Below, in pieces: positions 13,587-29,839 of a DNA stretch of 50,101 nucleotides (position 1 is the stretch's first letter; every line of letters starts with the position of its first letter). The notes beneath the pieces were generated by a model. That model made no database searches. It had not been told where the DNA came from and was given only the letters and a program-made list of their open reading frames with translations. The position numbers and the translations under genes are program-made. This DNA comes from an uncultured Coriobacteriales bacterium (GTDB lineage Bacteria; Actinomycetota; Coriobacteriia; Coriobacteriales; CAYVBA01), in the NCBI GenBank assembly GCA_964448475.1, contig CAYVBA010000004.1, positions 1 through 50,101 on the forward strand, given 5' to 3'.

Positions 13587-14636
13587 ATGCGAGCAACCGA
13601 AGAGATCGCTGGTATAAAGGCATACGGCATCGGTGGTATCGAGACCATCGTGGAGGAGATCGGACTACCGCGCTTCCGCGCTGGCCAGCTCATCCAGTGG
13701 CTCTACGGTAAAGGAGCTCGCTCGTTCGACGAGATGACCAACCTGCCGATCGCCCTGCGGGACAACCTCGCAGGGCGGTTCGACGTCTCCTTTCCGGAGG
13801 TCGTCGAACGCAGGTTCTCGGAGGACGGCACCAGGAAGTATCTCGTCGAGTTCCAGGATGGCGCGCAGGCCGAGATCGTCGGCATACCTAGTAAGGACCG
13901 TCTCTCGGTCTGCGTCTCATCCCAAGTAGGCTGCGCTATGGGTTGCTCCTTCTGCGCAACCGGTATGGAAGGCCTCGGTCGCAACCTCGGTCCCGGTGAG
14001 ATCGCGGACCAAGTACGTATCGTGGCGGAGGATTTCGGCGAGCGTGTCTCGAACGTCGTGGTCATGGGCCAGGGCGAGCCGTTCATGAACTACGATGCCA
14101 CGCTCGAAGCCATGAGAATCATGAACCATCCGGATGCGTTCAACATAGGGGCGCGACACATAACGGTGAGCACATGCGGTGTTCTGCCTGGTATACGACG
14201 GTTCGCTACGGAACCTGAGCAGTTCACACTCGCTATCTCCTTGCATTCCGCGATCCAGAAGACCCGCGACCGGCTCATGCCCGGAGTCAAGGCGTACACG
14301 CTCGACCGCCTCCGCGACTCCGTCATCTCCTACGCCGAGAGCACCCACAGGCGTCCGACGTTCGAGTACGCGCTCATCGCCGGAGTGAACGATACCGATG
14401 AGGAGATGGAAGCTCTCGCTGACTTCACCGAAGGCATCCTCGCTCACGTCAACATCATCCCGTTGAATCCCGTGAGTAAGAGCCGCCTCAAGCCGTCCAC
14501 CATGGAGCGCGCGGAGGATTTCGCTCGCGCACTCGGACGTCGTGGAACCGAGGTCACCGTACGGAAGTCACGCGGATCCGACATCGAAGCCGCATGCGGC
14601 CAGTTGAAACAAGTGGTCAGAGGCGAGGAATCCTAG
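13587..14636 (+). CDS. rlmN: 23S rRNA/tRNA (adenine-C2)-methyltransferase RlmN (radical SAM)
   Basis: RAGQLIQWLY, radical-SAM CAMGCSFCATG, C-terminal catalytic Cys (IEAACGQL). Confidence 0.92.
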   Translation: MRATEEIAGIKAYGIGGIETIVEEIGLPRFRAGQLIQWLYGKGARSFDEMTNLPIALRDNLAGRFDVSFPEVVERRFSEDGTRKYLVEFQDGAQAEIVGIPSKDRLSVCVSSQVGCAMGCSFCATGMEGLGRNLGPGEIADQVRIVAEDFGERVSNVVVMGQGEPFMNYDATLEAMRIMNHPDAFNIGARHITVSTCGVLPGIRRFATEPEQFTLAISLHSAIQKTRDRLMPGVKAYTLDRLRDSVISYAESTHRRPTFEYALIAGVNDTDEEMEALADFTEGILAHVNIIPLNPVSKSRLKPSTMERAEDFARALGRRGTEVTVRKSRGSDIEAACGQLKQVVRGEES

Positions 14637-14899
14637 AACGGAGCTTCGACCGACCTGACCTTGTCCCACTGCTCCTGAACCCACGCAGCGTTCTTCCGCG
14701 ATGCCTCCTGAGCCTTGCGGGCGCTCTCTTCGGAACGCTTCTTCGCGAGGCGCGCTACCTGCCCGATGTCTTCCTTCGTATCATCCACGGTCTTGGCCAG
14801 TCGCGCCCTCAGCTCGTTGTCGGTGGCTATGGTCACCACCGTGATCGCTACGGCGGCACCGATGATGGCGCCTGCTGCGATGATCGCACCGTTTCTCAT
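14633..14899 (-). CDS. YtxH-like small membrane-anchored stress protein
   Basis: N-terminal Gly/Ala TM helix followed by a charged helical region (KEDIGQVARLAKKRSEESARKAQE). Confidence 0.45.
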   Translation of the reverse strand: MRNGAIIAAGAIIGAAVAITVVTIATDNELRARLAKTVDDTKEDIGQVARLAKKRSEESARKAQEASRKNAAWVQEQWDKVRSVEAPF

Positions 14900-14903
14900 G
14901 TCT

Positions 14904-15746
14904 TCACTCCCCCATCAGATCGAGGATCCTGGCAAGGTCCTCCTCGTCGGAGAACTCTATCTCGATCTTGTTCTTGCCCTTGATCGTCTTCACCCTGACG
15001 TTCGTATCGAGAAGATCGCGGAGCGCACGTGCTGCCACCTTGAACGAGCGCGGTACCGCTCGGCTGACCGGTGCAGTCTCCTGGTTCGACTTCAGGAGTG
15101 GGATGAGGTTCTCGGTCTCACGTACGGAGAGTCCCTTCTCCACGATGCGATGAGCGAGCTTTATCCTCTGCTCAGGATAAGGCAGGGCGAGAATGGCGCG
15201 CCCGTGTCCAGCGCTGATCTTCCCGTCGAAGAGGAGGTTCTGTACCTCTTCCGGAAGATCCAGGAGTCTCAAGGAGTTCGTGATGGTGGATCTCGACTTG
15301 GAGACCGTACGGGCGAGCTCTTCTTGAGTCATGTCGGTCCGCTCGATGAGAGACTTATAGCCCTTAGCTTCTTCGATAGCGTTCAGGTCGGTTCGTTGCA
15401 GGTTCTCTATAAGAGCGAGTTTCAATGTTTCTATATCATCAACCTGCATTATCCTCACAGGGATAGATTGTAAACCCGCCTTCTTAGCTGCTTGCCAACG
15501 ACGCTCCCCCGCTATGATCTGATATCCCTTACCCTCAGGCCTCACGACAACAGGCTGGATCAGACCTACCTCAGCGATGGAATCGGAAAGCTCGGTGAGT
15601 GCATCCGCATCGAACTCGGTTCGTGGTTGATCGGGGTTCGGGTGGATCTCCTTGAGAGGTAGCTCCTTCGTACTCCCCTCTTCGGATGATTCTACTTCAG
15701 GGATGAGGGAGCCGAGACCTTTCCCAAGACCGGATTTTCTAGCCAC
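14904..15746 (-). CDS. parB: Chromosome partitioning protein ParB/Spo0J
   Basis: GLGKGLGSLI, LIQPVVVRP, IIAGERRWQAAKKAG, HTH region. 8-nt overlap with parA. Confidence 0.95.
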   Translation of the reverse strand: MARKSGLGKGLGSLIPEVESSEEGSTKELPLKEIHPNPDQPRTEFDADALTELSDSIAEVGLIQPVVVRPEGKGYQIIAGERRWQAAKKAGLQSIPVRIMQVDDIETLKLALIENLQRTDLNAIEEAKGYKSLIERTDMTQEELARTVSKSRSTITNSLRLLDLPEEVQNLLFDGKISAGHGRAILALPYPEQRIKLAHRIVEKGLSVRETENLIPLLKSNQETAPVSRAVPRSFKVAARALRDLLDTNVRVKTIKGKNKIEIEFSDEEDLARILDLMGE

Positions 15747-16500
15747 GAGCGATCACTTCCTTCGCGAGTTTCTTGTACGCTAAAGCACCTTTGTTGAGCG
15801 GAGCGTATTGGTTGACAGGAATCCCGTAACTGGGAGCTTCTGACAGTTTGACCGTTCGTGGAATCATGACCTTGAACACGTCATCTCCGAAGAAGTTCCT
15901 GACTTCGTTTACCACCTGTTTAGAAAGAGTGGTTCTACTGTCGTACATAGTGATGAGCACTCCGAAGATCTCAAGTTCCTTATTGAGTGAGCCTTGGATC
16001 AACTTCATGGATTCAAGCAGCTTCGAAACACCTTCGAGCGCATAATACTCAGCTTGGATCGGAATCAGCAACCCGTCGGCAGCAGTAAGAGCATTCACTG
16101 TTAGAAGGCCGAGCGAAGGCGGACAATCTATAAGGATGTAGTCGAATTCTTCATCTAACGTGGCTATGAGCTCTTTGAGCTTGTACTCCCTATGCTCGAT
16201 ATCTACGAGTTCTATCTCTGCGCCTGCTAGTTCGATGTCAGTAGGGATGATCCTCACGTTCTTCGCTGCGGTGTCGAGGATGATCTCAGATACAGTGATG
16301 TCTCCGAAAAGAGCTTCGTAAATCCCACTCGCTAATTCATCTTTGTTGATTCCAAGGCCACTGGTCGTGTTTCCCTGTGGGTCGAAATCGATGACTAGGA
16401 CCTTCTTCTTATTGGCACCCAATGTCGCAGCAAGGTTGACAGCGGTAGTCGATTTCCCGACTCCACCTTTCTGGTTGATTACTGCTAGTGTTCTGGCCAT
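15739..16500 (-). CDS. parA: Chromosome partitioning ATPase ParA/Soj
   Basis: Deviant Walker A NQKGGVGKSTTAVNLA, DCPPSLG. Confidence 0.95.
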   Translation of the reverse strand: MARTLAVINQKGGVGKSTTAVNLAATLGANKKKVLVIDFDPQGNTTSGLGINKDELASGIYEALFGDITVSEIILDTAAKNVRIIPTDIELAGAEIELVDIEHREYKLKELIATLDEEFDYILIDCPPSLGLLTVNALTAADGLLIPIQAEYYALEGVSKLLESMKLIQGSLNKELEIFGVLITMYDSRTTLSKQVVNEVRNFFGDDVFKVMIPRTVKLSEAPSYGIPVNQYAPLNKGALAYKKLAKEVIARG

Positions 16501-16511
16501 GCATCCCCCGA

Positions 16512-16527
16512 TGTTTCACGTGAAACA
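16512..16527. promoter_or_regulatory. parS centromere-like site (perfect 16-bp palindrome TGTTTCACGTGAAACA)
   Basis: Exact palindrome read in the sequence, between the parA start and the rsmG stop. Matches the published parS consensus tGTTNCACGTGAAACa. Confidence 0.9.
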
Positions 16528-17271
16528 CTACGCGAGAGGGCGCTTCTGGGCCCTTCCTGTAGCTCTCGGTAGCGAGACAGACTCTGTACTGGTCTTTACA
16601 TATACTAGTACAGTCCGCTGACCATATGAGTTGGTGAGATCGATATGTTCCATAGTCTTCAAATCTAGCCCGACCATACGTGCGACCTCGTCTCCCGAAT
16701 CCTTCTCTTCTTTAGAAAGTGGTCCCTTCGAAGAGATGAGAAGATCCCCAATATCCATATGCTGAGAAGCAAGTTCGAGCAGGGAGGGGAGTGCAGTGAG
16801 TGCTCGAGCTAGAACGACCCTGCGCATATGTGAGGGCTCGTCGAGCTCTTCGATGCGGGAATGAACAGCATTCAATCTATCGTCATATCCCAGCGACTGG
16901 ATGAATGAGCTCACGAGTTCGATCTTCTTCTTCGTTGAATCGACCAGTATTCCGGATCGGCCAGTTAGGATCGAGTAGGGGATACCTGGGAAGCCCCCGC
17001 CTGTGCCGATATCAAGGAACTCATGGTCCTCTTCGAGAGCGAACCGCGCGAATACAGCAGAGTCTTGAATATGAAGCACAAGTCCGTCTTCAAGGGATCT
17101 GATACTTGTCAGGTTCGTTATCTTATTCGCTTCCAAGACAAGATCAAGATGATCGATGAGTGCTGCTGCCTGTTGCGTGCTGCAATCAACACCGATATGT
17201 GAGCAAAGAAGAACAACCTCATCCTGAAGATCGGATGAGGTTGTTTCACGTGAAACATTTACTTCGTTCAT
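16528..17271 (-). CDS. rsmG: 16S rRNA (guanine527-N7)-methyltransferase RsmG (GidB)
   Basis: SAM motif FLDIGTGGGFPGIP. Conserved position between jag and parA. Confidence 0.92.
   Translation of the reverse strand: MNEVNVSRETTSSDLQDEVVLLCSHIGVDCSTQQAAALIDHLDLVLEANKITNLTSIRSLEDGLVLHIQDSAVFARFALEEDHEFLDIGTGGGFPGIPYSILTGRSGILVDSTKKKIELVSSFIQSLGYDDRLNAVHSRIEELDEPSHMRRVVLARALTALPSLLELASQHMDIGDLLISSKGPLSKEEKDSGDEVARMVGLDLKTMEHIDLTNSYGQRTVLVYVKTSTESVSLPRATGRAQKRPLA
17242..17257. promoter_or_regulatory. Second parS site (identical TGTTTCACGTGAAACA) embedded in rsmG codons 5-10
   Basis: Exact repeat of the 16-mer at 16512. Encodes ..VSRET.. of RsmG on the minus strand. Confidence 0.9.
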
Positions 17272-17273
17272 GA

Positions 17274-17879
17274 TCAGAGAGGTCTGATGACGACGTATCG
17301 CATAGGGTCACGACCTTCGGAGCTTGTCTCGACGTCAGCACGATCACGAAGCGCCATATGTACGACCCTACGTTCATAAGCGCTCATAGGCTTTAGCTTG
17401 ACTTCACGATTCTGATCAGCTGCGCGATCCGCTGCCGAAACTGCGATAGTCTCGACTTTCTGGCGGCGACGACTCTTGTAGCTCTCGATATCGACGACGA
17501 TGGGATAGCGGAATCCTAGCTGACGATTGATCATGAGACTGATGATCGTCTGGAGAGCATCGAGTGTTCTGCCATGACGTCCGATCAATACAGCGAGGTC
17601 GGCATCCGTCACATCGAGTATGAGTTCACCCTCTTCGCCTTCGTACTCACTGATCGTTGCATCATTCACGTCGAAGTAGGCGAGAACACCTCTTACGGTA
17701 TTGATCGCGAGATCCGCGATTCTATCGAGTTCCTCATCGAGAAGCTCCTCCCCGTTCTTGAACTTCTCTCCTATCTCATAAAACACATTTCCTGCTATTT
17801 GTTCTTCATCAGAGATAATTTCTTCGTCTTCGACGACTTCGTTCGTGTCGAGCTCGTTGTTAGTATTCATCGTATTCAC
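17274..17879 (-). CDS. jag: Jag/KhpB RNA-binding protein (Jag_N, KH, R3H)
   Basis: R3H motif region MSAYERRVVHMAL, KH-like GRHGRTLDALQ. Position downstream of yidC. Confidence 0.88.
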   Translation of the reverse strand: MNTMNTNNELDTNEVVEDEEIISDEEQIAGNVFYEIGEKFKNGEELLDEELDRIADLAINTVRGVLAYFDVNDATISEYEGEEGELILDVTDADLAVLIGRHGRTLDALQTIISLMINRQLGFRYPIVVDIESYKSRRRQKVETIAVSAADRAADQNREVKLKPMSAYERRVVHMALRDRADVETSSEGRDPMRYVVIRPL

Positions 17880-17888
17880 CCGTTCGAA

Positions 17889-18629
17889 CTAGCGCTTCTT
17901 CTTCGGTCGTTGCTTTCTCTCAGTACGGACGACATCGACCTCGATCGGCTTCACTGTATCAGCTTCCTCAGATTCAGCCTCGAGCTTCGTCTTCTTATTG
18001 ATGATCAGTTGTTGTGCGATACCCCAGAGTGAAGAGGTGTCCCAGTAGAGAAGGACACCGGCAGGGGAGATGAAACCGAAATAGAGCATCATGACTGACA
18101 TCATTCCGCCCATGAGCTTCATGTTCTTATCTGCTTTGCTTTGAAGCAACATCGGGATGAGTGTGGAGACGCCGAAGAACACGACCAAGATCAGGAAGGG
18201 GAGTGCTGCTATGATGCCGTTGTTGGTGAGCACCTCCTGGGGTGTGGAGGTCAGGGGGCTCACGAGATTGTAGAAGGAAGCACCCTCAGGTACTTGAGTC
18301 CGAAGCACATTGAACAGTGCGATGAAGATAGGCATCTGTACGAGCATAGGCAGACAGCCAGCAGCAGGATTGAACTTGTTCTCAGCGTAGAACTTCATCA
18401 TCTCTTCGTTGAGACGCTGAGGATCATCAGCATACTTCTGCTGGATCTCCTGGAGCTTCGGAGTGAGAAGCTGCATCGCTGCAGTCGATTTCATCTGCTT
18501 CAATGTGAGAGGTAGCAATATTATTCTCAATATTACAGTTAATACTATGATAGCTAATCCCCAGTCACCGACCACGGACTCCAGAGCTACCAATATCGAG
18601 AAGAGAAAATCCTTAAACCATGTCCACAT
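17889..18629 (-). CDS. yidC: Membrane protein insertase YidC
   Basis: Short Gram-positive type. GCLPMLVQMPIFIALF, basic C-terminal tail. Conserved synteny. Confidence 0.92.
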   Translation of the reverse strand: MWTWFKDFLFSILVALESVVGDWGLAIIVLTVILRIILLPLTLKQMKSTAAMQLLTPKLQEIQQKYADDPQRLNEEMMKFYAENKFNPAAGCLPMLVQMPIFIALFNVLRTQVPEGASFYNLVSPLTSTPQEVLTNNGIIAALPFLILVVFFGVSTLIPMLLQSKADKNMKLMGGMMSVMMLYFGFISPAGVLLYWDTSSLWGIAQQLIINKKTKLEAESEEADTVKPIEVDVVRTERKQRPKKKR

Positions 18630-18649
18630 GGGTCCTCCGTTGAAAACTA

Positions 18650-18907
18650 TCAGGGAACTGGATCATATCCACCTTTATGGAATGGATGGCATCTGAAAAT
18701 GCGTTTCACACCGAGATAGATACCTCGTATTACACCATACTTCCTGATAGCTTCGAGAGCATATTGGGAGCATGTGGGTGAATATATACAACTCGAGGGC
18801 AGTAGGGGAGAGATCAGACGTTGGTAGACGATGATCGGAGCTTGGAACACGATGATGATACCTCTGTGGAGAGGAGATCTGTTCTCATGATTCCTATGCT
18901 CGGCCAT
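18650..18907 (-). CDS. yidD: Membrane protein insertion efficiency factor YidD
   Basis: [31 protein letters not shown]. Confidence 0.92.
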
Positions 18908-19235
18908 CGCCGAAACCTGCCCTTTTGAGTAGATCGGCGAGCTCCTTCGTCACTTCCTGTGTCGATGAAGAAGAAGTCCTGCCGGTTGCCATGAGGATGA
19001 TATCGAAACCTGGCTTGGGAAGCTCGAGACTACGTGCAGCCTCCCTCATGACACGCTTGGAGCGATTCCGTTTTACGGCGTTTCCGAGTTTCTTGCCCGC
19101 AATAAAAGCAACGCGACCGGTCTGGTCGCGTTGGCTGGGCTCATCCTTCACGAGGATCCTGATCACTTTACCGTTGAATCTTCTTGAGTTCTTGAGAACG
19201 TACTCGATCTCGGAAGATGCGCGGATCGTGTTCAA
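18894..19235 (-). CDS. rnpA: Ribonuclease P protein component
   Basis: [16 protein letters not shown] (RNR motif). TTG start 4 nt after the rpmH stop. Confidence 0.9.
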
Positions 19236-19238
19236 TGG

Positions 19239-19376
19239 TTACACAGTCAGGCGCTTGCGACCCTTAGCACGGCGTGCAGCGAGGACGTGACGTCCACCCT
19301 TGGTTGCCATGCGGCTCCTGAATCCGTGGGTCTTAGCCCTCTTACGGCGATTTGGTTGATACGTGCGCTTGGTCAT
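19239..19376 (-). CDS. rpmH: 50S ribosomal protein L34 (45 aa; below the ORF-track cutoff)
   Basis: Hand translation of the minus strand: [51 protein letters not shown] Shine-Dalgarno upstream. Confidence 0.95.
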
Positions 19377-19493
19377 TACGTCCTCCTATAGCACGAGCGA
19401 TCTGCTCATAAGCTTCCAGATTATAAGTTCTACCTGTATCGATGTCAATGAAATCGATGATAACACCGCCAGTGGGGAGTTCTCCATGATAGC

Positions 19494-19778
19494 TGTGGAA
19501 AACTTCCTTACAAGGGGTGAAATCAGTGATACCACATGCTATAGTTTTTCTGCTCGCTATGCAATTTGATAACCATATATCGGATATTTATACGTAATGT
19601 ATCCCAGATAAGCTTGTTTGATTCATAGGGGATTCTGGAATCATTGGAATCGAAAAACAGGATTCCATCCATTCCAGCAGTTTATTCCACTGGATTCCAT
19701 ATGATTCCGCCAGTTTTCCACTTTTGTGGAACACTTTGTGGATAATGATGGAAATTACCAGGTCATGGATGTGAATAA
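19494..19778. other. oriC part 1: DnaA-box cluster between rpmH and the gene upstream of dnaA
   Basis: TGTGGAAAA 19494-19502; TTTTCCAC 19714-19721 facing TGTGGAAC 19725-19732; perfect TGTGGATAA 19737-19745; TGTGAATAA 19770-19778. AT-rich stretch about 19561-19600. Confidence 0.7.
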
Positions 19779-19802
19779 CTCCCCAGCTATTCAGGAATCC
19801 AC
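19631..19802. repeat. Array of GATTCC/GGAATC hexamers in the origin region
   Basis: Exact GATTCC at 19661, 19693, 19703. Exact GGAATC at 19637, 19646, 19794. ATTCCA at 19671 and 19684. GATTCT at 19631. Confidence 0.75.
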
Positions 19803-19852
19803 GTCCGATAACTATGGTTACCAGGTATTTAGATGGTATTTAAGTTATACAC

Positions 19853-20716
19853 ATGCCGTTGATAAGTACGGTGGACGGAACGAACCAGTGGGATGAAGAT
19901 TGGGGGAGCGTGAAAGAGTTTTATGCAACGCCTGACAGGGGTCAGCCTGAAGCTCCCATCTTCGATCCGCCTCTTCAGGCTCAGCCGTATGTGGATGACA
20001 CCCTCAAGGTCGAGAATCCAGCGCGTATAGCTATCTACGATGACCTACTCTCAGCTCCCCGTGTCGTGGTGGTGGAACCTCAAGGTATCCGTGAGTATCT
20101 CGATGAGATCTCTCTTCAGACCTACAACGCCTCCAGGTTGCAAGGAGGGGAGTTCCCATACACGGTAATCGAACAGGTCGTCGAGAACTTCATCCATGCG
20201 TACTTCGAAGAGCCCACTATCTCCATCACTAACGATGGAAGGACCATCCGCTTCACCGATCAGGGCCCCGGCATCTCCAATAAGGAGTTGGCACAACAGG
20301 TGGGGGTCACATCCGCCTCCCAGGATATGAAGCGTTTCATCAGGGGAGTGGGATCTGGTCTTCCCACCGTTAAGGAATATCTGACTTTCCAAGGTGGTCG
20401 TATGACCATCGAGGACAACATAAACAAAGGCACGATCATCACCATAACCATGGTGAAGGAACGCGATCCTATCCAGGAGGAACAGGAGAAGGAGACGTTC
20501 ATCGCTATAAACATCGATGACGACCAGAGGCGCGCACTCTATCTCTTCGATGATTTCGATCTGATCGGGCCGAAGGAATTGCGTGAGTGTCTCGGAATGG
20601 CGGATTCCACCGCCTCAAGGAAACTCCAGCAGATGGCTGATTTCGATCTCATCAAGAAGTCAGGTATCAAATACAAGCTCACCGAGTTCGGAAAGCGCTA
20701 TATCGAGTCTCTATAG
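19853..20716 (+). CDS. GHKL/HATPase_c(_4)-like ATP-binding domain fused to a C-terminal winged-HTH; putative regulator upstream of dnaA
   Basis: N-box-like YTVIEQVVENFIHAYF, G1-like FTDQGPGI, G2-like RGVGSGLP. C-terminal LRECLGMADSTASRKLQQMADFDLIKKSGIKYKLTEFG. Stop is 9 nt before the dnaA ATG. No clear SD at 19853, so the exact start is uncertain. Confidence 0.6.
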   Translation: MPLISTVDGTNQWDEDWGSVKEFYATPDRGQPEAPIFDPPLQAQPYVDDTLKVENPARIAIYDDLLSAPRVVVVEPQGIREYLDEISLQTYNASRLQGGEFPYTVIEQVVENFIHAYFEEPTISITNDGRTIRFTDQGPGISNKELAQQVGVTSASQDMKRFIRGVGSGLPTVKEYLTFQGGRMTIEDNINKGTIITITMVKERDPIQEEQEKETFIAINIDDDQRRALYLFDDFDLIGPKELRECLGMADSTASRKLQQMADFDLIKKSGIKYKLTEFGKRYIESL

Positions 20717-20725
20717 GTTGGAAGT

Positions 20726-22210
20726 ATGGAAACTAACACTGACGAAATCATCTTGTTCCTTTGGAATGACACGATGAAGCTCATAACCGAGACGCATGAC
20801 GATCCGAAGATGATCGCATGGTTGAAGTTGTTGAAGCCTATCGAACTCACCTCGAACAAACTCGTTCTGGTGTGCGAGCTCCAATGGCCGGCACGTAAGA
20901 TCATGTCGGACTATAAAGCTGATATAGAACGATGTCTGAAGGAGATCACCTTCGAGGATATAGACATCCATATCGAGATCGATCCTTCGAAGTTCGATGC
21001 CTCAGAGATCGAAATCTCCAAGCCGGAGGTCGTTGAATACGTGACACCCCAACGGCAGCCCGAGCCCATCTATGTACAGCCCCAGCCCACACAGGTCGAG
21101 AAGGTCGGGAGGAACCTCAAGACCGAAGTCAATTCGACCATCCCGACCAATGTCTCGATGAAGACGTTCGACACACTCGTCACCGGTGAGGCTAATAAGA
21201 TGGCGGTCAATTTCGCTCATCGAGTAGCGGAGTTGCCAGGACAGGATTCATTCAATCCTTTCTATGTATACGGGAAGAGCGGTACAGGCAAGACCCATCT
21301 CCTTCTCGCCATCTTGAACCACATCGAGATGACCCAGCCGCATCTCAAGACGCTCTATGTGACTTCGGAGCAGTTCACGAACGATTACATCCGTGAGATC
21401 GGTGAATCCAAGAAGACACAGAGTGGTCTTCCTATCATGAGGAATTACGAGAACGTGGACGTCCTCCTCGTCGACGATGTCCAGTTCTTCGAGGGTAAGG
21501 AAGAGACAATCACCTATTTCTTCCATTACTTCAATCGTGTGAAGGCGGAAGGGAAGCAGATCATACTTTCCGCTGATAGACCACCCAAGGACCTCACCTT
21601 GGATGAGAGGATGACCAGTAGGTTCAACGAAGGTCTTCTCACACCTATAAGTCCGCCTACGATCGAGATGAAGACTGCGATCATCAGGGCGTTATATCAC
21701 AACATGACCCAGACCGACCCGTGGTACAAGATCCAGATCGATGAATCGATCCTCTTCTACATGGCTGAGATTTCGAGCTCGAACGTGCGCGAGATTGAGG
21801 GATTCTTCACTTCTGTGATGGTGTTGGCTGAGCAGCTCGCATCCGAAGACCTGGAAATCACTAGGGATCATGTGAGACAGCAGGCTGAGGAGAGCTTCAA
21901 TCTCAATTACCTCCATAAGGTGTCGATCCAGACTATCCAGAAGGAGGTCGAGAAGAACCTGAACGTCACCCACGAAGATATGATCGGATCGAGCAGGAAG
22001 AAACACATCAACTTCGCTCGTCAGGTCGCTATGTTCCTCTCCCGTGAGCTCACCGATGAACCATTCGCTGCTATCGGCGAGAAGTTCGGGAGACGAGACC
22101 ACACGACTATCATCAACGGCGTGAAGAACATCAAGGAGCGGGTAGAGAACGACCGTGTCTTCTACGAACAGATAGAGACACTGAAGAATAGGATCAGGCG
22201 TATGTCGTAG
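20726..22210 (+). CDS. dnaA: Chromosomal replication initiator DnaA
   Basis: Walker A GKSGTGKTHLL, LLVDDVQF, domain IV RRDHTTIINGVKNI. Confidence 0.97.
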   Translation: METNTDEIILFLWNDTMKLITETHDDPKMIAWLKLLKPIELTSNKLVLVCELQWPARKIMSDYKADIERCLKEITFEDIDIHIEIDPSKFDASEIEISKPEVVEYVTPQRQPEPIYVQPQPTQVEKVGRNLKTEVNSTIPTNVSMKTFDTLVTGEANKMAVNFAHRVAELPGQDSFNPFYVYGKSGTGKTHLLLAILNHIEMTQPHLKTLYVTSEQFTNDYIREIGESKKTQSGLPIMRNYENVDVLLVDDVQFFEGKEETITYFFHYFNRVKAEGKQIILSADRPPKDLTLDERMTSRFNEGLLTPISPPTIEMKTAIIRALYHNMTQTDPWYKIQIDESILFYMAEISSSNVREIEGFFTSVMVLAEQLASEDLEITRDHVRQQAEESFNLNYLHKVSIQTIQKEVEKNLNVTHEDMIGSSRKKHINFARQVAMFLSRELTDEPFAAIGEKFGRRDHTTIINGVKNIKERVENDRVFYEQIETLKNRIRRMS

Positions 22211-22243
22211 TGTGTAGAACTAGGTGTAAACGACCTTCGATTG

Positions 22244-22414
22244 GCGTGGAAAGTGTGGGGAGAAATTCTTATCCCACAGGAGATAGAGAATCCGGTGGAA
22301 GGGGTTGAGAACTTTCAACCGAACGACTTGAGATCCGTAAGCTTCTTACAAGCAGGTTCGTCAGTTTTCAACATATCCACCGAGGTTATTATTATGATGA
22401 TCTTCATATATAAA
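22244..22414. other. oriC part 2: dnaA-dnaN spacer with degenerate DnaA boxes and AT-rich candidate unwinding element
   Basis: GTGGAAA at 22246, TTATCCCACA at 22269-22278, ATATCCAC at 22373-22380. AT-rich TTATTATTATGATGATCTTCATATATAAAG about 22385-22414. Confidence 0.55.
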
Positions 22415-22428
22415 GAGAGGACCTTAGA

Positions 22429-23541
22429 ATGAGATTCAGCGTAGGCCAGAGTAGCTTGATCACAGCTCTCAACACCGTTTCGAAAGCATGCTCGGTCAGC
22501 AGCTCTCTCCCGATCCTCATGGGGATCCATATCAAAGCTATGGATGGCCTTGTGGAGTTCGAGGCTACCGATCTCAACACCTCCATCCGAAGCACAATTC
22601 CCGCCTTGGTCGAGGTACCGGGTGAGATCGTCGTGTCAGGAAAGGTCTTCCAGGACATCGTGAAGAGCCTACCGGATGCTGCCGTTTCGATCGAACTCGT
22701 GAACAACACGCTCCTCATCAACTGTGAGCGTTCATCGTTCAAAGTGAATACCTTGGATCCCGTGGATTTCCCCTCGTTCCCCGTGTTCCAAGAGTCGGAG
22801 TCGGTGCAACTTCCCACGAAACTACTGACCGACCTCGTCAATAGGGTGAGAAGAGCAGCTGCTACGGATAAGACCAGAGCTATTCTCACCGGTATCCTCC
22901 TCTCCATCGAGAACAACACGATCAAGCTCGTCTCGACCGACTCGTACCGCCTCGCTATCGCTGAGGCTCATTCGGAGACGAGTAGCCTTGAAGGTTCTCT
23001 GGAAGTCATCGTTCCAGCCGCTTCATTCACTGAAGCTCTTTCCATAGCGGGGAGCGGGGTAGAGGATTTCAAGCTGTCGCTTTCCGAGAACCAACTCATG
23101 TTCACCATCGGTGAGACCGTCTACATCACTCGCCGTATCGAAGGGAACTTCCCCAACTACAAACAGCTCCTTCCTAAGGACAAGGCGACCTCGATAGAGA
23201 TTCCTCTCGGAGATCTCACCAACGCATTAAGGCGTGTCGCGGTCATGGCTCAGAAGACGACACCGGTGAGATTCGCTGTTTCCGCTGAGGATAATCTGGT
23301 GACCCTCATGTCTCGGAGCCCCGATCAAGGTGGAGCTCAGGAGGAAGTAGTCGCCGAGGTCGAAGGTGAGGATATGGAGATCGCTTTCAACCATCACTAC
23401 GTCCTGGACGGTCTCTCCATGAAAGCTGATGCGGACGAGAAGGTCATGATCGAGCTCCAATCAGCACTGAAGCCCGGTATCTTCCGTATGTTCGGATCGG
23501 TTGATTATCTCTACCTGGTCATGCCCGTACGGATGAACTGA
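22429..23541 (+). CDS. dnaN: DNA polymerase III beta sliding clamp
   Basis: Three-domain clamp pattern. LVSTDSYRLA, MPVRMN C-terminus. Synteny. Confidence 0.95.
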   Translation: MRFSVGQSSLITALNTVSKACSVSSSLPILMGIHIKAMDGLVEFEATDLNTSIRSTIPALVEVPGEIVVSGKVFQDIVKSLPDAAVSIELVNNTLLINCERSSFKVNTLDPVDFPSFPVFQESESVQLPTKLLTDLVNRVRRAAATDKTRAILTGILLSIENNTIKLVSTDSYRLAIAEAHSETSSLEGSLEVIVPAASFTEALSIAGSGVEDFKLSLSENQLMFTIGETVYITRRIEGNFPNYKQLLPKDKATSIEIPLGDLTNALRRVAVMAQKTTPVRFAVSAEDNLVTLMSRSPDQGGAQEEVVAEVEGEDMEIAFNHHYVLDGLSMKADADEKVMIELQSALKPGIFRMFGSVDYLYLVMPVRMN

Positions 23542-23542
23542 T

Positions 23543-24622
23543 GTGAGTCTGCGTATCACCGAATTGAAACTTCTGGATTTCAGGAGCTTCGAGGATCTCC
23601 ATCTACCTATAGAAGAGGATCTCGTCATCATCCTCGGACCGAACGCTGCCGGTAAGACCAACCTCATAGAAGCACTTTCAGTGCTGACATCAGGGGAGTC
23701 ATTCCGCACATCATCCATGAAGGATCTCATCAGAGTAGGGAAGAAGAGAGCCTCTGCCCGTCTTCACTACCAAGGAGATGTGCGCTCTCTGGACGTGATA
23801 GCGGAGTTGGAGAAGAGGAAATCCTTCAAACTCAACGGCAAACCGATCCGAACCGAGGAGCTCAGGAAACTCGTTCCTTCCGTTTCCTTCACACCCAACG
23901 ATCTCGATCTCGTCAAACGCGGGTCATCATTACGGCGAGAAGCTCTGGATCGTCTCGGAGTGATACTGCATCCGAATTATGTCGAGTTCAGTCGAGCGTA
24001 CGAGCGTGCACTCATACAGCGTAATTCGGTTCTAAAGGACCAGTTCATAGACGAAGCTGTTCTTGCTGCATGGACGGAGAACCTGGTCATCAACGGTACG
24101 TTGCTCACGCTCTACAGGAGATCACTCTTCGAGAGATTAATACCGTTCATCCAGGAAGCCTATGCTCGGCTCTCGCCAGCAGAAGACGTAGACGGATCCT
24201 ACGAATCGAGCATAGAGGGAGCACCTTCGGATAAGGAAGGCTTCCAAGAAGCATTCCACCAGCGAATACGTGAGAATTCCGAAGAGGAGAGGATGAGAGG
24301 GATGACCCTCATCGGCCCTCAACGTGATGATGTGAGATTGACGCTCGATGGAAGGGATATCCGAAACTTCGGTTCACAAGGGCAACAACGTACCATGGTC
24401 CTCGCGTGGAAGATGGCGGAGATGAAGGCGATAGAGGATTATCTCGGCCAGGTTCCTATCCTCCTACTCGATGACGTCATGTCTGAACTCGATGAACATA
24501 GACGCGCTGAGCTCCTTTCGTTCGTCGATGGCCGCGTTCAGACCTTCATCAGCTCGACGACCGTCGAGTACTTCCCTGATGAGGTACTTTCACGGGCGCA
24601 GGTGGTGAGACTCGGTGGCTAA
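23543..24622 (+). CDS. recF: DNA replication/repair protein RecF
   Basis: Walker A GPNAAGKTNLIEAL, signature SQGQQRT, Walker B LLLDDV. GTG start. Confidence 0.95.
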   Translation: MSLRITELKLLDFRSFEDLHLPIEEDLVIILGPNAAGKTNLIEALSVLTSGESFRTSSMKDLIRVGKKRASARLHYQGDVRSLDVIAELEKRKSFKLNGKPIRTEELRKLVPSVSFTPNDLDLVKRGSSLRREALDRLGVILHPNYVEFSRAYERALIQRNSVLKDQFIDEAVLAAWTENLVINGTLLTLYRRSLFERLIPFIQEAYARLSPAEDVDGSYESSIEGAPSDKEGFQEAFHQRIRENSEEERMRGMTLIGPQRDDVRLTLDGRDIRNFGSQGQQRTMVLAWKMAEMKAIEDYLGQVPILLLDDVMSELDEHRRAELLSFVDGRVQTFISSTTVEYFPDEVLSRAQVVRLGG

Positions 24623-24623
24623 T

Positions 24624-25130
24624 ATGGATCTCAGTGGACTGATGGGTTCGTATCTCGGTGACCTCAGAGTGACCCAATCTTCCCGTAACAGATTCTTCGC
24701 ACTCCATAGAATCTGGGAGGATATCGGTGATGCGAACACACACGAGTTCACTCGAGGCATCTACCTCATAGAAGATGCGGATCCACCCACCCTTAAGGTG
24801 TATGTGGAAAGCCCTCAGTGGGCCCAGGAATTCACCATGAACAAGGTGTTCTATCTCGCGAAGTTGAAGCGGAGGTATCCCGAGGCGCCTTTCTCGGATC
24901 TGGTTTTCGTCGTTAATAAGGATGTGAAGAGGAAGAAAGCCGCAGAGAAGAAGGAAGCGGAACCTCATTACCGTGAGATGGGCGACATCTCCGTGACACT
25001 CGATGAGAAAGAGCGTCAGGAGATCGTAGGGATGGTGTCGGATATCCGCAGTGATGATGTGAGAGAAGCGGCTAGAAAAGCGACAGAAGCCTATCTCTCA
25101 TGGAAAAAAAGACTCGAGCCCTCAAAATAG
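24624..25130 (+). CDS. DUF721 / DciA-like protein (candidate replicative-helicase operator)
   Basis: Conserved recF-DUF721-gyrB position. W..IGD....HT.......TLKVYVESPQWAQEF pattern. Basic/acidic C-terminal tail. Alternative GTG start at 24615. Confidence 0.6.
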   Translation: MDLSGLMGSYLGDLRVTQSSRNRFFALHRIWEDIGDANTHEFTRGIYLIEDADPPTLKVYVESPQWAQEFTMNKVFYLAKLKRRYPEAPFSDLVFVVNKDVKRKKAAEKKEAEPHYREMGDISVTLDEKERQEIVGMVSDIRSDDVREAARKATEAYLSWKKRLEPSK

Positions 25131-25256
25131 CTCAGAACGCATTTGGTTTCCTTGTAGGGCTATGAATACGCCTGATATGAGAGCCCTAATACTGTATACT
25201 TATCCGAACAGATGGCGCCGCGATTGAGAGGCGCCTGTTCCATGTTAGGAGACGAT

Positions 25257-27176
25257 GTGGCTCAATCCTCAAGTAGTTACTCCGGAAGCGATATCCAAGT
25301 ACTGGAAGGACTCGAAGCTGTCCGTAAGCGTCCAGGCATGTATATCGGCTCCACGAGTGAGAGAGGCCTGCACCATCTGGTGTACGAAGTGGTGGATAAC
25401 TCGGTAGACGAGGCGCTGGCTGGTTACTGCACGCGTATCGATGTGACCATCCACGTCGACGGTTCTCTCACCGTGGTCGACAACGGTCGAGGTATTCCGG
25501 TAGACAAACACCCCAAGATGAAGAAGCCGACCCTCGAGGTCGTACTTACCATCCTTCACGCGGGCGGTAAGTTCGGTGATGGTGGATACAAGGTGTCAGG
25601 TGGACTCCACGGTGTCGGTGTTTCCGTCGTGAACGCTCTCTCGGAGCGACTCGTCGCTGAAGTTAAGCGCGACGGTAAGATCTATCGCATGGAGTTCGCA
25701 CGTGGGAAGACGGTATCCAAGCTCGAAGTGGTAGGGAAATCGAAGGCTACCGGGAGCAAGATCACGTTCCTTCCTGACTCCGAGATCTTCGAGACCACCA
25801 TCTTCGACTACGAGACACTCGAGAATCGCCTGCGCGAGATGGCGTTCCTCAACAAGAACCTCAAGATCACCCTCACCGATGAGCGCGAGCTCGAACCCCG
25901 CGTCTCTGAGTTCCAGTTCTCCGGTGGTATCTCGGACTTCGTCAAGTATCTGAACGACGGCAAAGAAGTACTCACCGGTCTTTCTCGCCCTATCTATTTC
26001 GAGTCGGAAGCTGATGAGGGAGAAGTCGAGGTCGCACTCCAATGGAACACGACCTACAACGAGACCATCCTTTCGTTCGCGAACAACATCCACACCACGG
26101 ATGGCGGAACCCACCTCGAAGGCTTCAGGAACTCACTCACCAAGACGATCAATGATTACGCTCGTCGAATGAGCATCCTGAAGGAGAAGGATTCCAACCT
26201 CACAGGTGAGGATTTGCGAGAAGGACTGACGGCTATCGTCTCCGTGAAGTTGAGCGAGCCGCAGTTCGAGGGGCAGACGAAGGCGAAGCTCGGTAACTCG
26301 GAGATGCGTGCGTTCGTATCGCAGGCAATCTCAGCGGGTCTCGGGGAGTTCCTCGAGGAGCATCCCAATCCGGCACGCGAGATCATCAAGAAGGCATCCG
26401 CAGCAGCTAACGCTCGTAAGGCTGCGCAACTCGCGCGTCAGAACACCCGTAGGAAAGGTCTCCTGGATACACTCGCCCTTCCAGGTAAGCTCGCGGATTG
26501 TTCAATCACTACGCCGGAGACCACCGAACTCTACATCGTAGAGGGTGACTCGGCAGGTGGTTCCGCGAAGCAGGCTCGTGACCGTTCCTTCCAAGCCATC
26601 CTTCCGCTGCGCGGCAAGATCCTGAACGTGGAGCGTGCCGGACTCCACCGCTCACTTTCATCCGAGACGATCCAGCAGCTCATCACTGCTATCGGAACAG
26701 GTGTCGGTGACGAGTTCAACGCTGAGGATGCTCGCTACCACAAGATCATCATCATGACCGACGCGGACGTGGATGGCGCGCACATCAGGACGCTGCTCCT
26801 CACGTTCTTCTATCGCTATATGAAGGACCTCATCCACGCCGGATACATCTACATCGCTCAGCCTCCTCTCTACAGGCTGAAGGTCGGGCGCAAGCATACG
26901 TACGTCTACTCCGACGAGGCGCTTCAAGAGGAGATCGCCAAGCTCGAGGAGGGACGTAAGTACGAGATCCAGCGGTATAAGGGTCTCGGTGAGATGGATC
27001 CTGAACAGCTCTGGGATACCACGATGGATCCCAAGAACCGCACACTCCTCCAGGTCCAGATCGATGATGCAGCAGCAGCTGAGCGATCGGTATCGGAATT
27101 GATGGGAAGCGAAGTCGAGTACCGCAGGGACTTCATCCAGAAGCATGCTAAAGACGTCCGGTTCCTGGATATCTAG
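25257..27176 (+). CDS. gyrB: DNA gyrase subunit B
   Basis: [54 protein letters not shown] at 25257 follows AGGAG (25247-25251); alternative in-frame starts at 25212 and 25242. Confidence 0.95.
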
Positions 27177-27199
27177 AGACTCGAGCACGAGGAGATCAC

Positions 27200-29839
27200 G
27201 TGGCAGAAGATAACGAAAGAGAAGAAGAAGTCCGAGAAGACGGTGAAACACCCGATAGCTTGGATATCCATGGCGGAGCGCTGAAGCACTCGGAGCTCTC
27301 CAAGGAGATGAAGACGTCGTTCCTCGAGTACTCGATGAGCGTCATCGTGGCTCGCGCCCTTCCCGACGTCCGTGACGGTTTGAAGCCCGTCCATCGCCGT
27401 ATCCTCTACGCGATGAACGAGTCGGGTATCACGCCCACCCGCCCCCATAAGAAGTCGGCATGGACCGTAGGTGAAGTCATCGGTAAGTACCACCCCCATG
27501 GTGACTCCGCTGTGTACGAGACCATGGTCCGTCTCGCCCAGGACTTCTCCATGCGCGTACCGCTCGTGGATGGTCATGGGAACTTCGGCTCAATCGATGG
27601 TGACTCCGCAGCTGCTATGCGTTATACGGAGTCCCGTCTCACCAGGTCAGCCATGGAGCTACTCCGTGATCTGGACAAGGAGACCGTCGACTACCAGCCG
27701 AACTACGACGAATCGCTGCAGGAGCCTCAGGTCCTGCCCTCACGGTTCCCCAACCTGCTGGTCAACGGCTCATCAGGAATCGCTGTCGGTATGGCCACGA
27801 ACATGGCACCGCACAACATGGGTGAGGCCATCGATGCAACGGTGGCGCTGATAGATAACCCTGAGATCACCGTTGATGAACTCATGGAGCACATCCCCGG
27901 TCCGGACTTCCCGACCGGCGGACTCATCATGGGTTCCGACGGCATCCGTGACGCCTATGCGACGGGCCGCGGTTGCGTGACCGTCAGAGCACGTGCTCAC
28001 ATCGAACAGACCACGACCGGTCGCTCCCGCATCGTCATCACGGAGATCCCGTACCAGGTGAACAAGGGCCGTCTTCAGGAGAAGATCGCGGAGCTCGTCC
28101 ATAACAAGAAGATTACCGAGATCTCGGGCCTGCGTGACGAGTCCGACCGTAAGGGTATGCGCCTCGTCATCGAACTCAAGCGTGACGTCATACCTCAGGT
28201 GGCTCTCAACAAGCTCTTCAAGCACACGCAGCTGCAGAGCAACTTCAACATCATCAACCTGGCACTCGTCGACGGTGTTCCTCGAGAGCTCACGTTGCAC
28301 GAGATTCTCTCGTACTACATCGCTCACCAGGAAGAGGTTATCGTACGCAGGACACGCTATGATCTTCGCAAGGCTGAGGAACGCGCTCACATCCTCGAGG
28401 GATACATCATCGCTCTCGACAACATAGATGAAGTAATCCAGATCATCCGTTCCTCGAACGATGACAAGGAAGCCAAAGCCCGTTTGATGGAGCGCTTCGG
28501 TCTCTCAGAAGCACAGACCGACGCCATCCTGGAGATGCGTCTTCGTAGGCTGACTGGCCTCGAGCGCCATAAGATCGAAGATGAGCTCGCAGAGCTGCGA
28601 CGCCTCATCGCCTACTATAAGGAAATTCTCGGTTCGCGTAATCGCGTACTTGAGGTCATCAAGGAGGAACTCCTCGAGGTCAAGGGGAAGTACGCCGACA
28701 AGCGTCGCTCCGAGATTACCCACGCAGCGCGTGACCTGCAGGTTGAGGACCTCATCGCCGAGGAGGATATGGTCGTCACGATCACCCGCACCGGCTACGT
28801 GAAGCGTCTGCCTGTAGCTACGTACCGTCAGCAGCGCCGCGGCGGCAAGGGTGTGTCGGGCGTCAACCTCAAGGACAACGACTTCGTCGAGACGCTCTTC
28901 GTCTCCTCGACGCACGATTACGTCCTGTTCTTCTCGACGTTGGGCAAGGTCTACCGCCTGAAGGTGCATGAGATCCCTGTCGGTTCGCGACAGGCCCGTG
29001 GTACCGCAATCGTCAATCTCCTCCCGTTCGAAGGGGGCGAGAAGATCGCGGCCGGTATCTCCACACGTGAGTTCCCGGAGGACGAGTACCTGCTCTTCGC
29101 CACGCGCGAAGGTATGGTCAAGCGGACCTCGATGGCTGACTACAACCGGTCGCGTCGTGACGGGATCATCGCCATCAAGCTGCGGGAAGGTGACGAACTC
29201 ATCTCCGTCCGACGCGTGAAGGATGACGACAACGTCATCCTCGTGACCGACAGCGGTAAGGCTATCAAGTGGCAGGCGAGCGAAGCCCGCCCCATGGGCC
29301 GCGACACGCAGGGCGTGAAGGGCATCAACCTGGTCGGGGATGCGAAGGTCCTCGATATGGAGATCTCCAAGACGGACGCCGGTGACCTCTTCGTCATCAC
29401 TGAGAAGGGTTACGGCAAGAGGACCAATCTGGGCGATTACCCCACGCAGAAGCGTGGCGGCCAAGGTGTCTTCACCATCCAGATGACCCAGAAGAAGGGT
29501 GATCTGGCCGCCATGAAGGTAGTCGGTCCGCAGCATGAACTCATGATCGTGTCGGAGGAAGGCGTCGTCATCCGCGTCAAGGCCAAGGACATCTCGCGCC
29601 TCGGCCGCGCCACGCAGGGCGTCAAGGTCATGAACGTCTCCGAAACGGACAAGATCGTCTCCGTGGCACGCATGGCTCCCGCCAAGAAGAAGGAGCCGAA
29701 GGCAGACAAGGAGCTGGAAGGCCAGGAATCACTCGGCCTGAGCGTTGAGGAGGAGCCCGTCGACCTCGGAGATGACACCGAGACGGAGCTCGCCGAAGAG
29801 CTGGTCGCCGAGAGCTTCGACGACGACTCCGAGGAGTAG
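27200..29839 (+). CDS. gyrA: DNA gyrase subunit A
   Basis: [12 protein letters not shown], active-site AAMRYTE, C-terminal beta-pinwheel repeats, acidic tail. GTG start after GAGGAG. Confidence 0.96.

Follow-up and report, generated by a model that had tools for sequence, protein, structure and literature searches.

Control of DnaA is known in detail for only a few model bacteria. Known accessory regulators of DnaA and oriC include Hda, SeqA, DiaA/HobA, YabA, SirA, Soj, CtrA, MtrA, HP1021 and AdpA; Hda, SeqA, YabA, SirA, HobA and others are each restricted to particular lineages. To our knowledge, none of these regulators has a GHKL domain and none lies invariably immediately upstream of dnaA. 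The Coriobacteriia, a major group in the human gut, mouth and vagina, include genera associated with humans (Eggerthella, Collinsella, Olsenella and Fannyhessea), and we know of no DnaA regulator described for this class; literature searches found none. Here we analyze a gene, referred to as X, in a 50,101-nucleotide stretch of contig CAYVBA010000004.1 from an uncultured Coriobacteriales bacterium (the window, to which all positions refer unless a locus is named). X encodes a 287-residue protein that consists of a GHKL-type ATP-binding domain and a C-terminal winged helix-turn-helix (wHTH), and it lies between rpmH and dnaA. We find that X is a genuine, strongly conserved and previously uncharacterized gene, and that its family occupies the slot upstream of dnaA across at least two phyla, beyond the Coriobacteriia.

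Full-text literature searches retrieved no paper on gene X. A sequence-only reading of the window knew of no described initiation regulator with this architecture, and our literature searches likewise found none. What is new here is the occurrence of a GHKL ATP-binding module with a wHTH in an undescribed, cross-phylum context that is locked to dnaA. Since the position upstream of dnaA is held in every related genome examined, in at least two phyla, X is a good candidate for an unrecognized partner of DnaA or of the origin.

Conservation of X and its linkage to dnaA

The sequence-only reading had described a plus-strand open reading frame (ORF) for 287 aa at 19853-20716, set between rpmH and dnaA and ending 9 nt before dnaA on the same strand. 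This ORF is present, the coordinates of its slot agree, and Pfam matches, homologues and an AlphaFold2 (AF2) model back its reality beyond chance. The peptide motifs quoted in that reading all occur in the translation (VIEQVVENFIHAYF at residues 105-118, FTDQGPGI at 134-141, RGVGSGLP at 164-171 and STASRKLQQMADFDLIKKSGIKYKLTEFG at 252-280), and the identities of rpmH and dnaA at the locus were confirmed by Pfam. The gap to dnaA is exactly 9 nt, because the TAG stop codon of X occupies 20714-20716 and the dnaA ATG starts at 20726; a scan of the window found no terminator-like site on the plus strand between the two genes. The start codon of X is uncertain. ATG 19853 is not preceded by a Shine-Dalgarno sequence, and an alternative start at GTG 19910 gives the N-terminus that is typical of the X family (M-x-x-FY...). 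The GC content of X is that of its surroundings, and an identical copy of the protein is encoded on 11 metagenome contigs that are independent of one another.

When 1.84 billion cluster representatives were scanned exhaustively with HMMER, the X family comprised 582 clusters at E ≤ 1e-3, of which 241 remained at E ≤ 1e-30; a word-indexed search with X returned 3885 homologous proteins. The labels given to the family in the source databases are "ATP-binding protein", "histidine kinase", "anti-sigma regulatory factor" and "hypothetical protein". An origin of X from a mobile element was considered and dropped: the gene is essentially absent from plasmids and phages, with one weak partial match each among 72,556 plasmids and 50,697 phages, and the plasmid match comes from a kinase-like protein of 800 aa that is unrelated to X. 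We take X to be functional and to be inherited vertically.

Synteny was surveyed in 80 loci from species-representative genomes and 80 from metagenomes, onto which nine origin-region proteins of the window were mapped by tblastn; spacer boundaries in these surveys are extrapolated from tblastn and are approximate. In all 142 loci with at least 1.2 kb of downstream sequence, dnaA is the next gene and lies on the same strand as X, and rpmH is divergent upstream of X in 141 of 144. Two of the exceptions reflect rearrangement around an intact pair. In an Eggerthellaceae metagenome-assembled genome (MAG; L048, 3046-9389) and a metagenome contig (L134, 16-4188), leftward recF and dnaN are followed by rightward X and dnaA and then by rightward rpmH and rnpA; X-dnaA has been inverted as an exact block, which breaks the rpmH and dnaN junctions and leaves the X-dnaA junction intact. 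The third exception is a 1.75-kb contig (L125) with no rpmH match upstream of X. The X sequences of the surveyed loci, 152 of them with a complete ORF, fall into 128, 43 and 25 clusters at identity thresholds of 95%, 70% and 60%, and DnaA across these loci has diverged to about 30% identity.

The named genome loci with X belong to Atopobiaceae/Olsenella, Collinsella, Fannyhessea, Eggerthellaceae and Anaerosomatales, all within the class Coriobacteriia. Relatives of the X at one divergent metagenome locus (L165) are annotated in MAGs labelled Armatimonadota, and those of another (L157) in "Actinomycetota bacterium" MAGs and in Candidatus Oleimmundimicrobium, the taxon labels being the depositors' own. 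Four Armatimonadota-labelled assemblies carry parB-parA-gidB-jag-yidC-yidD-rnpA-rpmH on one strand and X-dnaA-dnaN-recF-dciA-gyrB on the other, and the relatives of L157 share this layout. Beyond the 142 loci, dnaA adjoins X in 9 further Armatimonadota-labelled and other Actinomycetota loci. Gaps between X and dnaA in these groups measure 5-98 nt; the gap at L169 is GAGGAGGCC, a ribosome-binding site. The survey of relatives that the sequence-only reading had proposed thus revealed a tighter linkage, with other phyla included, than that reading foresaw.

Olsenella-like origin loci were also encountered on contigs of MAGs labelled Paludibacteraceae, Oscillibacter, Oscillospiraceae, Bacteroidaceae and Alloprevotella (L037, L057, L065, L066, L067 and L075). 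Over the best-matching segment, X at these loci shows 55-57% identity, with the gene order unchanged; they probably reflect binning contamination.

Domain architecture and ATP site

The assignment of X as a GHKL protein with a wHTH, proposed from the letters of the window, is correct. Pfam HATPase_c (PF02518) matches residues 103-200 with E 7.8e-10 and 39.6 bits (gathering score 26.4). HATPase_c_4, which had been suggested as an alternative, did not match, and the wHTH family HVO_A0261_N (PF25213) scored 32.6 bits over residues 240-286, just below its gathering score of 35. Matches with E about 0.01 were also obtained to several further HTH families, and many relatives have precomputed matches to PF25213 or PF09339.

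The AF2 model (mean predicted local distance difference test (pLDDT) score 81) contains a Bergerat-type alpha/beta domain and a helix-helix-helix-strand-strand wHTH. The pLDDT exceeds 90 across most of residues 50-200 in the GHKL domain and is 95-98 in the wHTH elements (helices 223-234, 240-247 and 251-263; strands 267-270 and 273-276), and residues 1-42, with pLDDT below 50, are predicted to be disordered. Foldseek against the PDB ranked 3LMM first and as the sole match across both domains; catalytic and ATP-binding (CA) domains of histidine kinases came next, many of them with a Foldseek probability of 1.00. A profile search of PDB sequences with X found KinB, MutL N-terminal domains (motif I and G1) and wHTH domains of the Csa3/PhiH1 type, the matches to the Csa3 and PhiH1-repressor winged helices having E about 2e-3. 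By profile, motifs and fold, X is a member of the GHKL/Bergerat-fold superfamily.

The ATP-site motifs were located with an alignment of 36 diverse X homologues (alignment A1). In X they are motif I (E111-N112-x-x-H115-A116), the G1 box (D136-Q-G-P-G-I), the G2 box (R164-G-V-G-S-G-L-P) and then G193-T194; the core shared across the alignment comprises PARIAVYDD..APRVV (two strands), R-E-I-V-E-N-F-I-H-A as motif I, D-Q-G-P-G-I as G1, I-R-G-V-G-S-G-L-P as G2 and a G-T close to the end of the domain. Invariant residues include E111, N112, H115, A116, D136, G138, G140, G165, G167 and G169 in the ATP site and T253 and R256 in the recognition helix of the wHTH, which reads S-T-A-S-R-K-L in X. The wHTH of the family follows the pattern GP.DL...G.S..TWSRELK.LE..GL..K.GQK..LT..G, after a P/Q-rich linker of 0-200 residues. 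G1 is retained in 159 of 161 X loci and G2 in 149 of 161, and the ATP site is under purifying selection.

One position in motif I sets the window copy apart. Four residues before the Mg-binding Asn (N-4), Glu is found in 151 of the 155 loci with a matchable motif I, preceded by Arg, Lys, Glu or Gln, whereas X of the window has E107-Q108 (20171-20176); three other loci also lack this Glu (LQ, SK and NK). Glu at N-4 is the general base in GHL ATPases. With Gln in its place, the window copy may bind ATP and yet hydrolyze it poorly or not at all.

The N-terminus of the family starts with a short motif, M-x-x-x-F-Y-P-F-V, followed by a variable, disordered acidic segment. The motif is found in most homologues and is degenerate in the window copy (KEFYATP, residues ~20-25); it may be a docking peptide, to judge by its form. 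A homologue at L098 (3479-4699) has an N-terminal extension of ~170 residues. The short form of X (250-300 aa) is found in the window, in Anaerosomatales, in Armatimonadota-labelled MAGs and in other Actinomycetota, and the homologues of Atopobiaceae and Collinsella carry P/Q-rich low-complexity insertions of 0-200 residues between the GHKL domain and the wHTH.

Upstream DNA and origin layout

The DnaA-box cluster and the GATTCC repeat array that had been reported directly upstream of X are both there (Table 1), although the array may itself consist of DnaA boxes. The first box of the triad reads TTTTCCAC-T and the third, TGTGGATAA, is a perfect DnaA box; the triad lies 108 nt upstream of the X ATG, and positions 19712-19721 form a perfect 10-nt inverted repeat with the region of the distal box at 19494. 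In Armatimonadota-labelled and other Actinomycetota loci, the same arrangement of three boxes precedes X at a distance of ~90-260 nt, and 24 of 145 loci have the triad at ≤1 mismatch per box; the triad is conserved across phyla. Over all loci, DnaA-box-like 9-mers occur at 9.7 per kb in the rpmH-X spacer, 10.8 in the X-dnaA spacer and 10.1 in the dnaA-dnaN spacer, against 1.5 in the coding sequence of X and 0.8 in that of dnaA.

Table 1. Positions of gene X, its domains and the surrounding features in the window.
Feature	Position	Strand	Basis
Gene X, 287-aa GHKL-type ATP-binding protein with C-terminal wHTH	19853..20716	+	ORF list
X N-terminus (~42 residues), predicted to be disordered; holds a weakly conserved "FY" left over from the FYPFV motif	19853..19978	+	pLDDT, alignment A1
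X GHKL (Bergerat-fold) ATP-binding domain, residues ~50-200	20000..20452	+	Invariant columns of A1, Foldseek
X winged helix-turn-helix, residues ~220-287	20510..20713	+	AF2, Pfam, profile matches
Gap from X stop to dnaA ATG, 9 nt	20717..20725	+	Sequence
dnaA	20726..22210	+	Pfam Bac_DnaA and Bac_DnaA_C
rpmH (ribosomal protein L34), divergent from X	19239..19376	-	ORF list, Pfam
rpmH promoter, perfect sigma-70 consensus TTGACA-17-TATAAT	19420..19448	-	Promoter scan
Distal DnaA box TTTTCCACA	19494..19502	-	Sequence
GGAATC/GATTCC(A) array, spacing about 9-15 bp	19630..19710	.	Repeats; extra copy at 19794-19799
DnaA-box triad AGTTTTCCAC-TTT-TGTGGAACA-CTT-TGTGGATAA, orientation +,-,-, 3-nt spacers	19712..19745	.	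Sequence
Possible promoter for a leaderless X mRNA: TTACCA, 17 nt, TAAGTT, 6 nt, ATG	19818..19852	+	Read from sequence
Likely unwinding module in the dnaA-dnaN spacer: TTTTCAACA, TATCCACC, GAGG, TTATTATTATGATGATC, AT-rich tract	22365..22415	+	Sequence

Exact GGAATC/GATTCC hexamers number 6 within 163 bp (19637-19799), compared with 44 in the entire window. The enrichment is confined to this region; GATTCCA was dropped as an over-represented word of the window at large, with 12 copies found and 7.9 expected. At the position of the array, dense arrays of TTTTCCAC-type boxes occur in L087 and L089, the two closest relatives whose spacers could be read, for which reason the array in the window may represent degenerate, low-affinity DnaA sites that share a TTCCA core, and not an operator in its own right. 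Alternatively, its repeats could possibly be putative X sites.

A possible promoter, read from the sequence, lies just before the X ATG, and a leaderless X mRNA could start from it; a consensus promoter scan of the window did not have this candidate among its results. Direct repeats lie near the start of X, with two copies of GGTATTTA (19824 and 19835) overlapping the candidate promoter and two of TTACCAGGT (19755 and 19818). On the opposite strand, the words of the rpmH promoter (TTGACA, TACAATCT) are kept, depending on the word, in 58-78 of the rpmH-X spacers of 79 relatives. Counts of k-mers over 79 rpmH-X, 73 X-dnaA and 74 dnaA-dnaN spacers of relatives gave DnaA-box variants (TTTTCAACA/TTTTCCACA), words of the rpmH promoter and of ribosome-binding sites, and trio or AT-rich words only, and hence no conserved operator for X could be named. 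No Rfam family matched the rpmH-X-dnaA region; the Rfam matches in the window are four tRNAs elsewhere.

The first proposal placed X within oriC, and this is revised here: X lies behind the upstream box cluster and not in the unwinding element, since the likely unwinding module is in the dnaA-dnaN spacer. There, DnaA boxes, the GC stretch GAGG, trinucleotide repeats and an AT-rich tract follow one another as in the box and DnaA-trio system that unwinds the origin of Bacillus subtilis, from which the definition of the DnaA-trio was taken (PMC6669920). The bottom strand of TTATTATTATGATGATC reads 3'-AAT AAT AAT ACT ACT-5', and in relatives TAGTAGTAATA and AT-rich words are over-represented in the spacer between dnaA and dnaN. 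Positions 22365-22415 are the likely site of strand opening. If the match to this unwinding system is right, the origin region would be bipartite, with X-dnaA between its two halves as dnaA is in B. subtilis.

Across the 50 kb, GC skew gives too weak a signal to locate the origin; the AT skew changes sign, and gene orientation switches, at about 18-20 kb. By Pfam, parA, gidB, jag (KH/R3H), yidC, (yidD), rnpA and rpmH form the minus-strand set at the origin, and dnaA, dnaN and recF follow X on the plus strand. A gradual and roughly symmetric GC trough is centred on the origin and extends over 14000-29000, from parA through gyrB and with coding sequence included; the GC fraction is 0.60-0.64 at ≤14 kb, 0.48 at 19-20 kb and about 0.60-0.62 at 29-31 kb. 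After recF, a 171-aa ORF (24615-25130) gave no Pfam match at E ≤ 1e-4; DciA is encoded in or near this position in the Armatimonadota-labelled and other Actinomycetota relatives.

Proposed role and alternatives

Taking the evidence together, we lean, if only by a modest step, towards a functional assignment of X to the DnaA/oriC system; each specific mechanism is much less secure than this general assignment. The short gap and the lack of a terminator-like site make co-transcription of X and dnaA plausible in the window. X would then be the first gene of an X-dnaA(-dnaN) unit behind the conserved DnaA-box cluster, and so would be made together with DnaA and under DnaA's own control, from a DnaA-controlled promoter and, in the window, as a leaderless mRNA. 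With a minimal GHKL domain, a flexible linker and a winged-helix DNA-binding domain, the protein could serve as an ATP-switched accessory factor. ATP would bind to the GHKL head, probably with head-to-head dimerization as in other GHKL proteins, and the ATP-bound state would alter the way in which the pair of wHTH domains contacts DNA of the origin region. The output would be a tuned transcription of the dnaA operon and/or a tuned assembly of DnaA on the upstream box cluster of the bipartite origin. Co-transcription, origin DNA binding, dimerization and an effect on initiation are steps that we infer from sequence. Taken as a whole, X might represent a new class of initiation factor, in which a GHKL ATP switch and a winged helix, encoded in the dnaA operon, bind the origin or DnaA and couple ATP status to DnaA expression or assembly throughout the Coriobacteriia, other uncultured Actinomycetota and Armatimonadota; we put this forward tentatively. 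The sequence-only observation on X as a whole is confirmed, and its interpretation as an origin- or dnaA-linked regulator is partly supported.

Several points weigh against a role of X at the origin. The regulatory role is proposed from gene context, and gene order can stay conserved without a direct functional link. The synteny survey covers the loci of the best-scoring homologues, and more distant ones (E 1e-10 to 1e-30) also exist. In many Atopobiaceae, the spacer between X and dnaA measures 70-500 nt and has DnaA boxes and a TATACT-like word of its own, so that dnaA is evidently expressible there independently of X. To these may be added the failure of the k-mer counts to produce an X operator, the Pfam score of the wHTH just under its threshold, and the Gln in place of the N-4 Glu in the window copy.

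In the most serious alternative, X would be a transcription factor or nucleoid protein of an ordinary kind that binds ATP and has its targets elsewhere, and it would keep its slot through operon inertia or through the benefit of origin-proximal, growth-rate-coupled expression, not through any work on DnaA or oriC. The genes jag, yidC, rnpA, gidB, recF and gyrB, with unrelated functions, are likewise highly syntenic in X loci, and the spacers yielded no X-specific DNA motif, both of which speak for it. Inertia accounts poorly, however, for an adjacency to dnaA that is unbroken in at least two phyla despite the divergence of DnaA, and for the two lineages in which exactly X and dnaA have been inverted at the cost of their linkage to rpmH and dnaN. 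X also sits between dnaA and the very DnaA boxes that would autoregulate it. We regard this explanation as unlikely, though it deserves to be taken seriously.

Alternatively, X could act on a protein, as a partner-switching kinase like SpoIIAB/RsbW or as an ATP-dependent binder, with DnaA, the clamp or a sigma factor that serves the promoter of dnaA as its target and the wHTH as a mere tether. Its GHKL part is indeed a minimal module of ~150 residues that lacks the dimerization and histidine phosphotransfer (DHp) domain, relatives bear the JGI label "anti-sigma regulatory factor (Ser/Thr protein kinase)", and the N-terminal FYPFV motif with its disordered segment resembles a docking peptide. 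X also weakly matches the anti-sigma F factor model TIGR01925 over residues 104-199 (E 1e-3), but its 18.9 bits fall far short of the cut-off of 135, and in none of the loci does a STAS/anti-anti-sigma or sigma gene adjoin X. The wHTH, T253 and R256 included, is as conserved as the ATP site, which favours a role in reading sequence over that of a tether. An action on protein targets is accordingly less probable still, in our judgement.

The layout of the locus brings to mind a further possibility, in which X is an origin-organizing or segregation factor, either as an ATP-driven dimer that bridges the box clusters flanking X-dnaA or as a mark of the origin for ParAB/SMC. GHKL ATPases such as GyrB, MutL, Hsp90 and MORC commonly dimerize upon ATP binding, box clusters lie both upstream of X and in the dnaA-dnaN spacer of the putatively bipartite origin, and the P/Q-rich linkers of variable length between head and wHTH would suit a bridge. 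The argument is purely architectural, however, X has neither a transducer nor a clamp domain, and parAB is present as usual with no special linkage to X; we give this idea little credence. The view that X is a spurious ORF, a pseudogene or a mobile gene of recent arrival, for which only the missing Shine-Dalgarno sequence at ATG 19853 could be cited, is refuted by its conservation, with thousands of homologues that share invariant catalytic-site motifs, the identical protein on 11 independent contigs, near-absence from plasmids and phages, and a GC content like that of the surroundings.

We return to X as a candidate partner of the DnaA/oriC system. By its conserved slot, intact ATP pocket and DNA-reading helix, X is about the strongest candidate that genomics alone can give. 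If it acts on initiation, the GHKL fold joins the proteins that control bacterial origins, and X offers a lineage-specific handle on replication in, for example, Eggerthella lenta and Fannyhessea vaginae. Without such an action, the extreme synteny would need another explanation.

Comparison with known systems

NCBIfam has no specific family for X and returned only sub-threshold kinase, SpoIIAB and MutL models. The CA domains of histidine kinases (KinB, 3D36; HK853; CpxA) share the fold and the G1 and G2 boxes with X and are its best sequence matches in the PDB (E 6e-4 to 1e-3; Foldseek E about 1e-6 to 1e-5). X was nevertheless rejected as a sensor histidine kinase: there is no HisKA-type Pfam match even at E ≤ 10 and no DHp hairpin in the model, an acceptor His helix, a sensor, a membrane segment and an adjacent response regulator are all missing, and the neighbours are rpmH and dnaA. 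With SpoIIAB/RsbW, X has in common a minimal GHKL domain of ~140-150 residues without DHp, the ExxxN motif I and the GxGxG lid. It differs in having a wHTH and in the lack of a nearby STAS antagonist or sigma-factor gene, in the window and in annotated relatives, and membership of this group was rejected on these grounds and on the TIGR01925 score.

MutL motif I is K-E-L-V-E-N-S-L-D-A, which the motif I of the X family parallels, N-4 Glu included. The matches of X to MutL N-terminal domains are weak (E 5e-3 to 0.03) and cover motif I and G1 only. In contrast to the GHL ATPases (MutL/GyrB/Hsp90/MORC), X has no transducer domain with a catalytic Lys, since a linker helix and the wHTH follow directly on the GHKL domain; the G2 lid is kinase-like (GxGxGL), and the window copy has Gln at N-4. 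X was therefore not classed with them. A role in anti-phage defence was likewise dropped: PADLOC models match the wHTH only (CARF/Csa3-type and WH models), with none over the ATPase part.

Closest in overall structure is DIP2311 of Corynebacterium diphtheriae (3LMM), which combines a GHKL-like fold with a C-terminal wHTH as X does (Foldseek E 3e-7 over 256-277 aligned columns). The resemblance is structural only, with 17-18% identity, a template-modelling (TM) score of about 0.43 and a root-mean-square deviation of about 11 Å. X is not an AlbA_2 - HATPase_c_4 - wHTH regulator of the DIP2311 type, as neither AlbA_2 nor HATPase_c_4 matches it in Pfam at E ≤ 10. DIP2311 is, like X, functionally uncharacterized, and we know of no link of DIP2311-type genes to dnaA.

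With the known regulators of DnaA and oriC, X would share the place of action, if the role suggested by its context is correct. For one origin-region factor, DciA/Rv0004, synteny was the route to discovery (PMC5720831), and X resembles DciA in that its candidacy likewise arises from conserved placement in the dnaA-dnaN-recF-gyrB neighbourhood.

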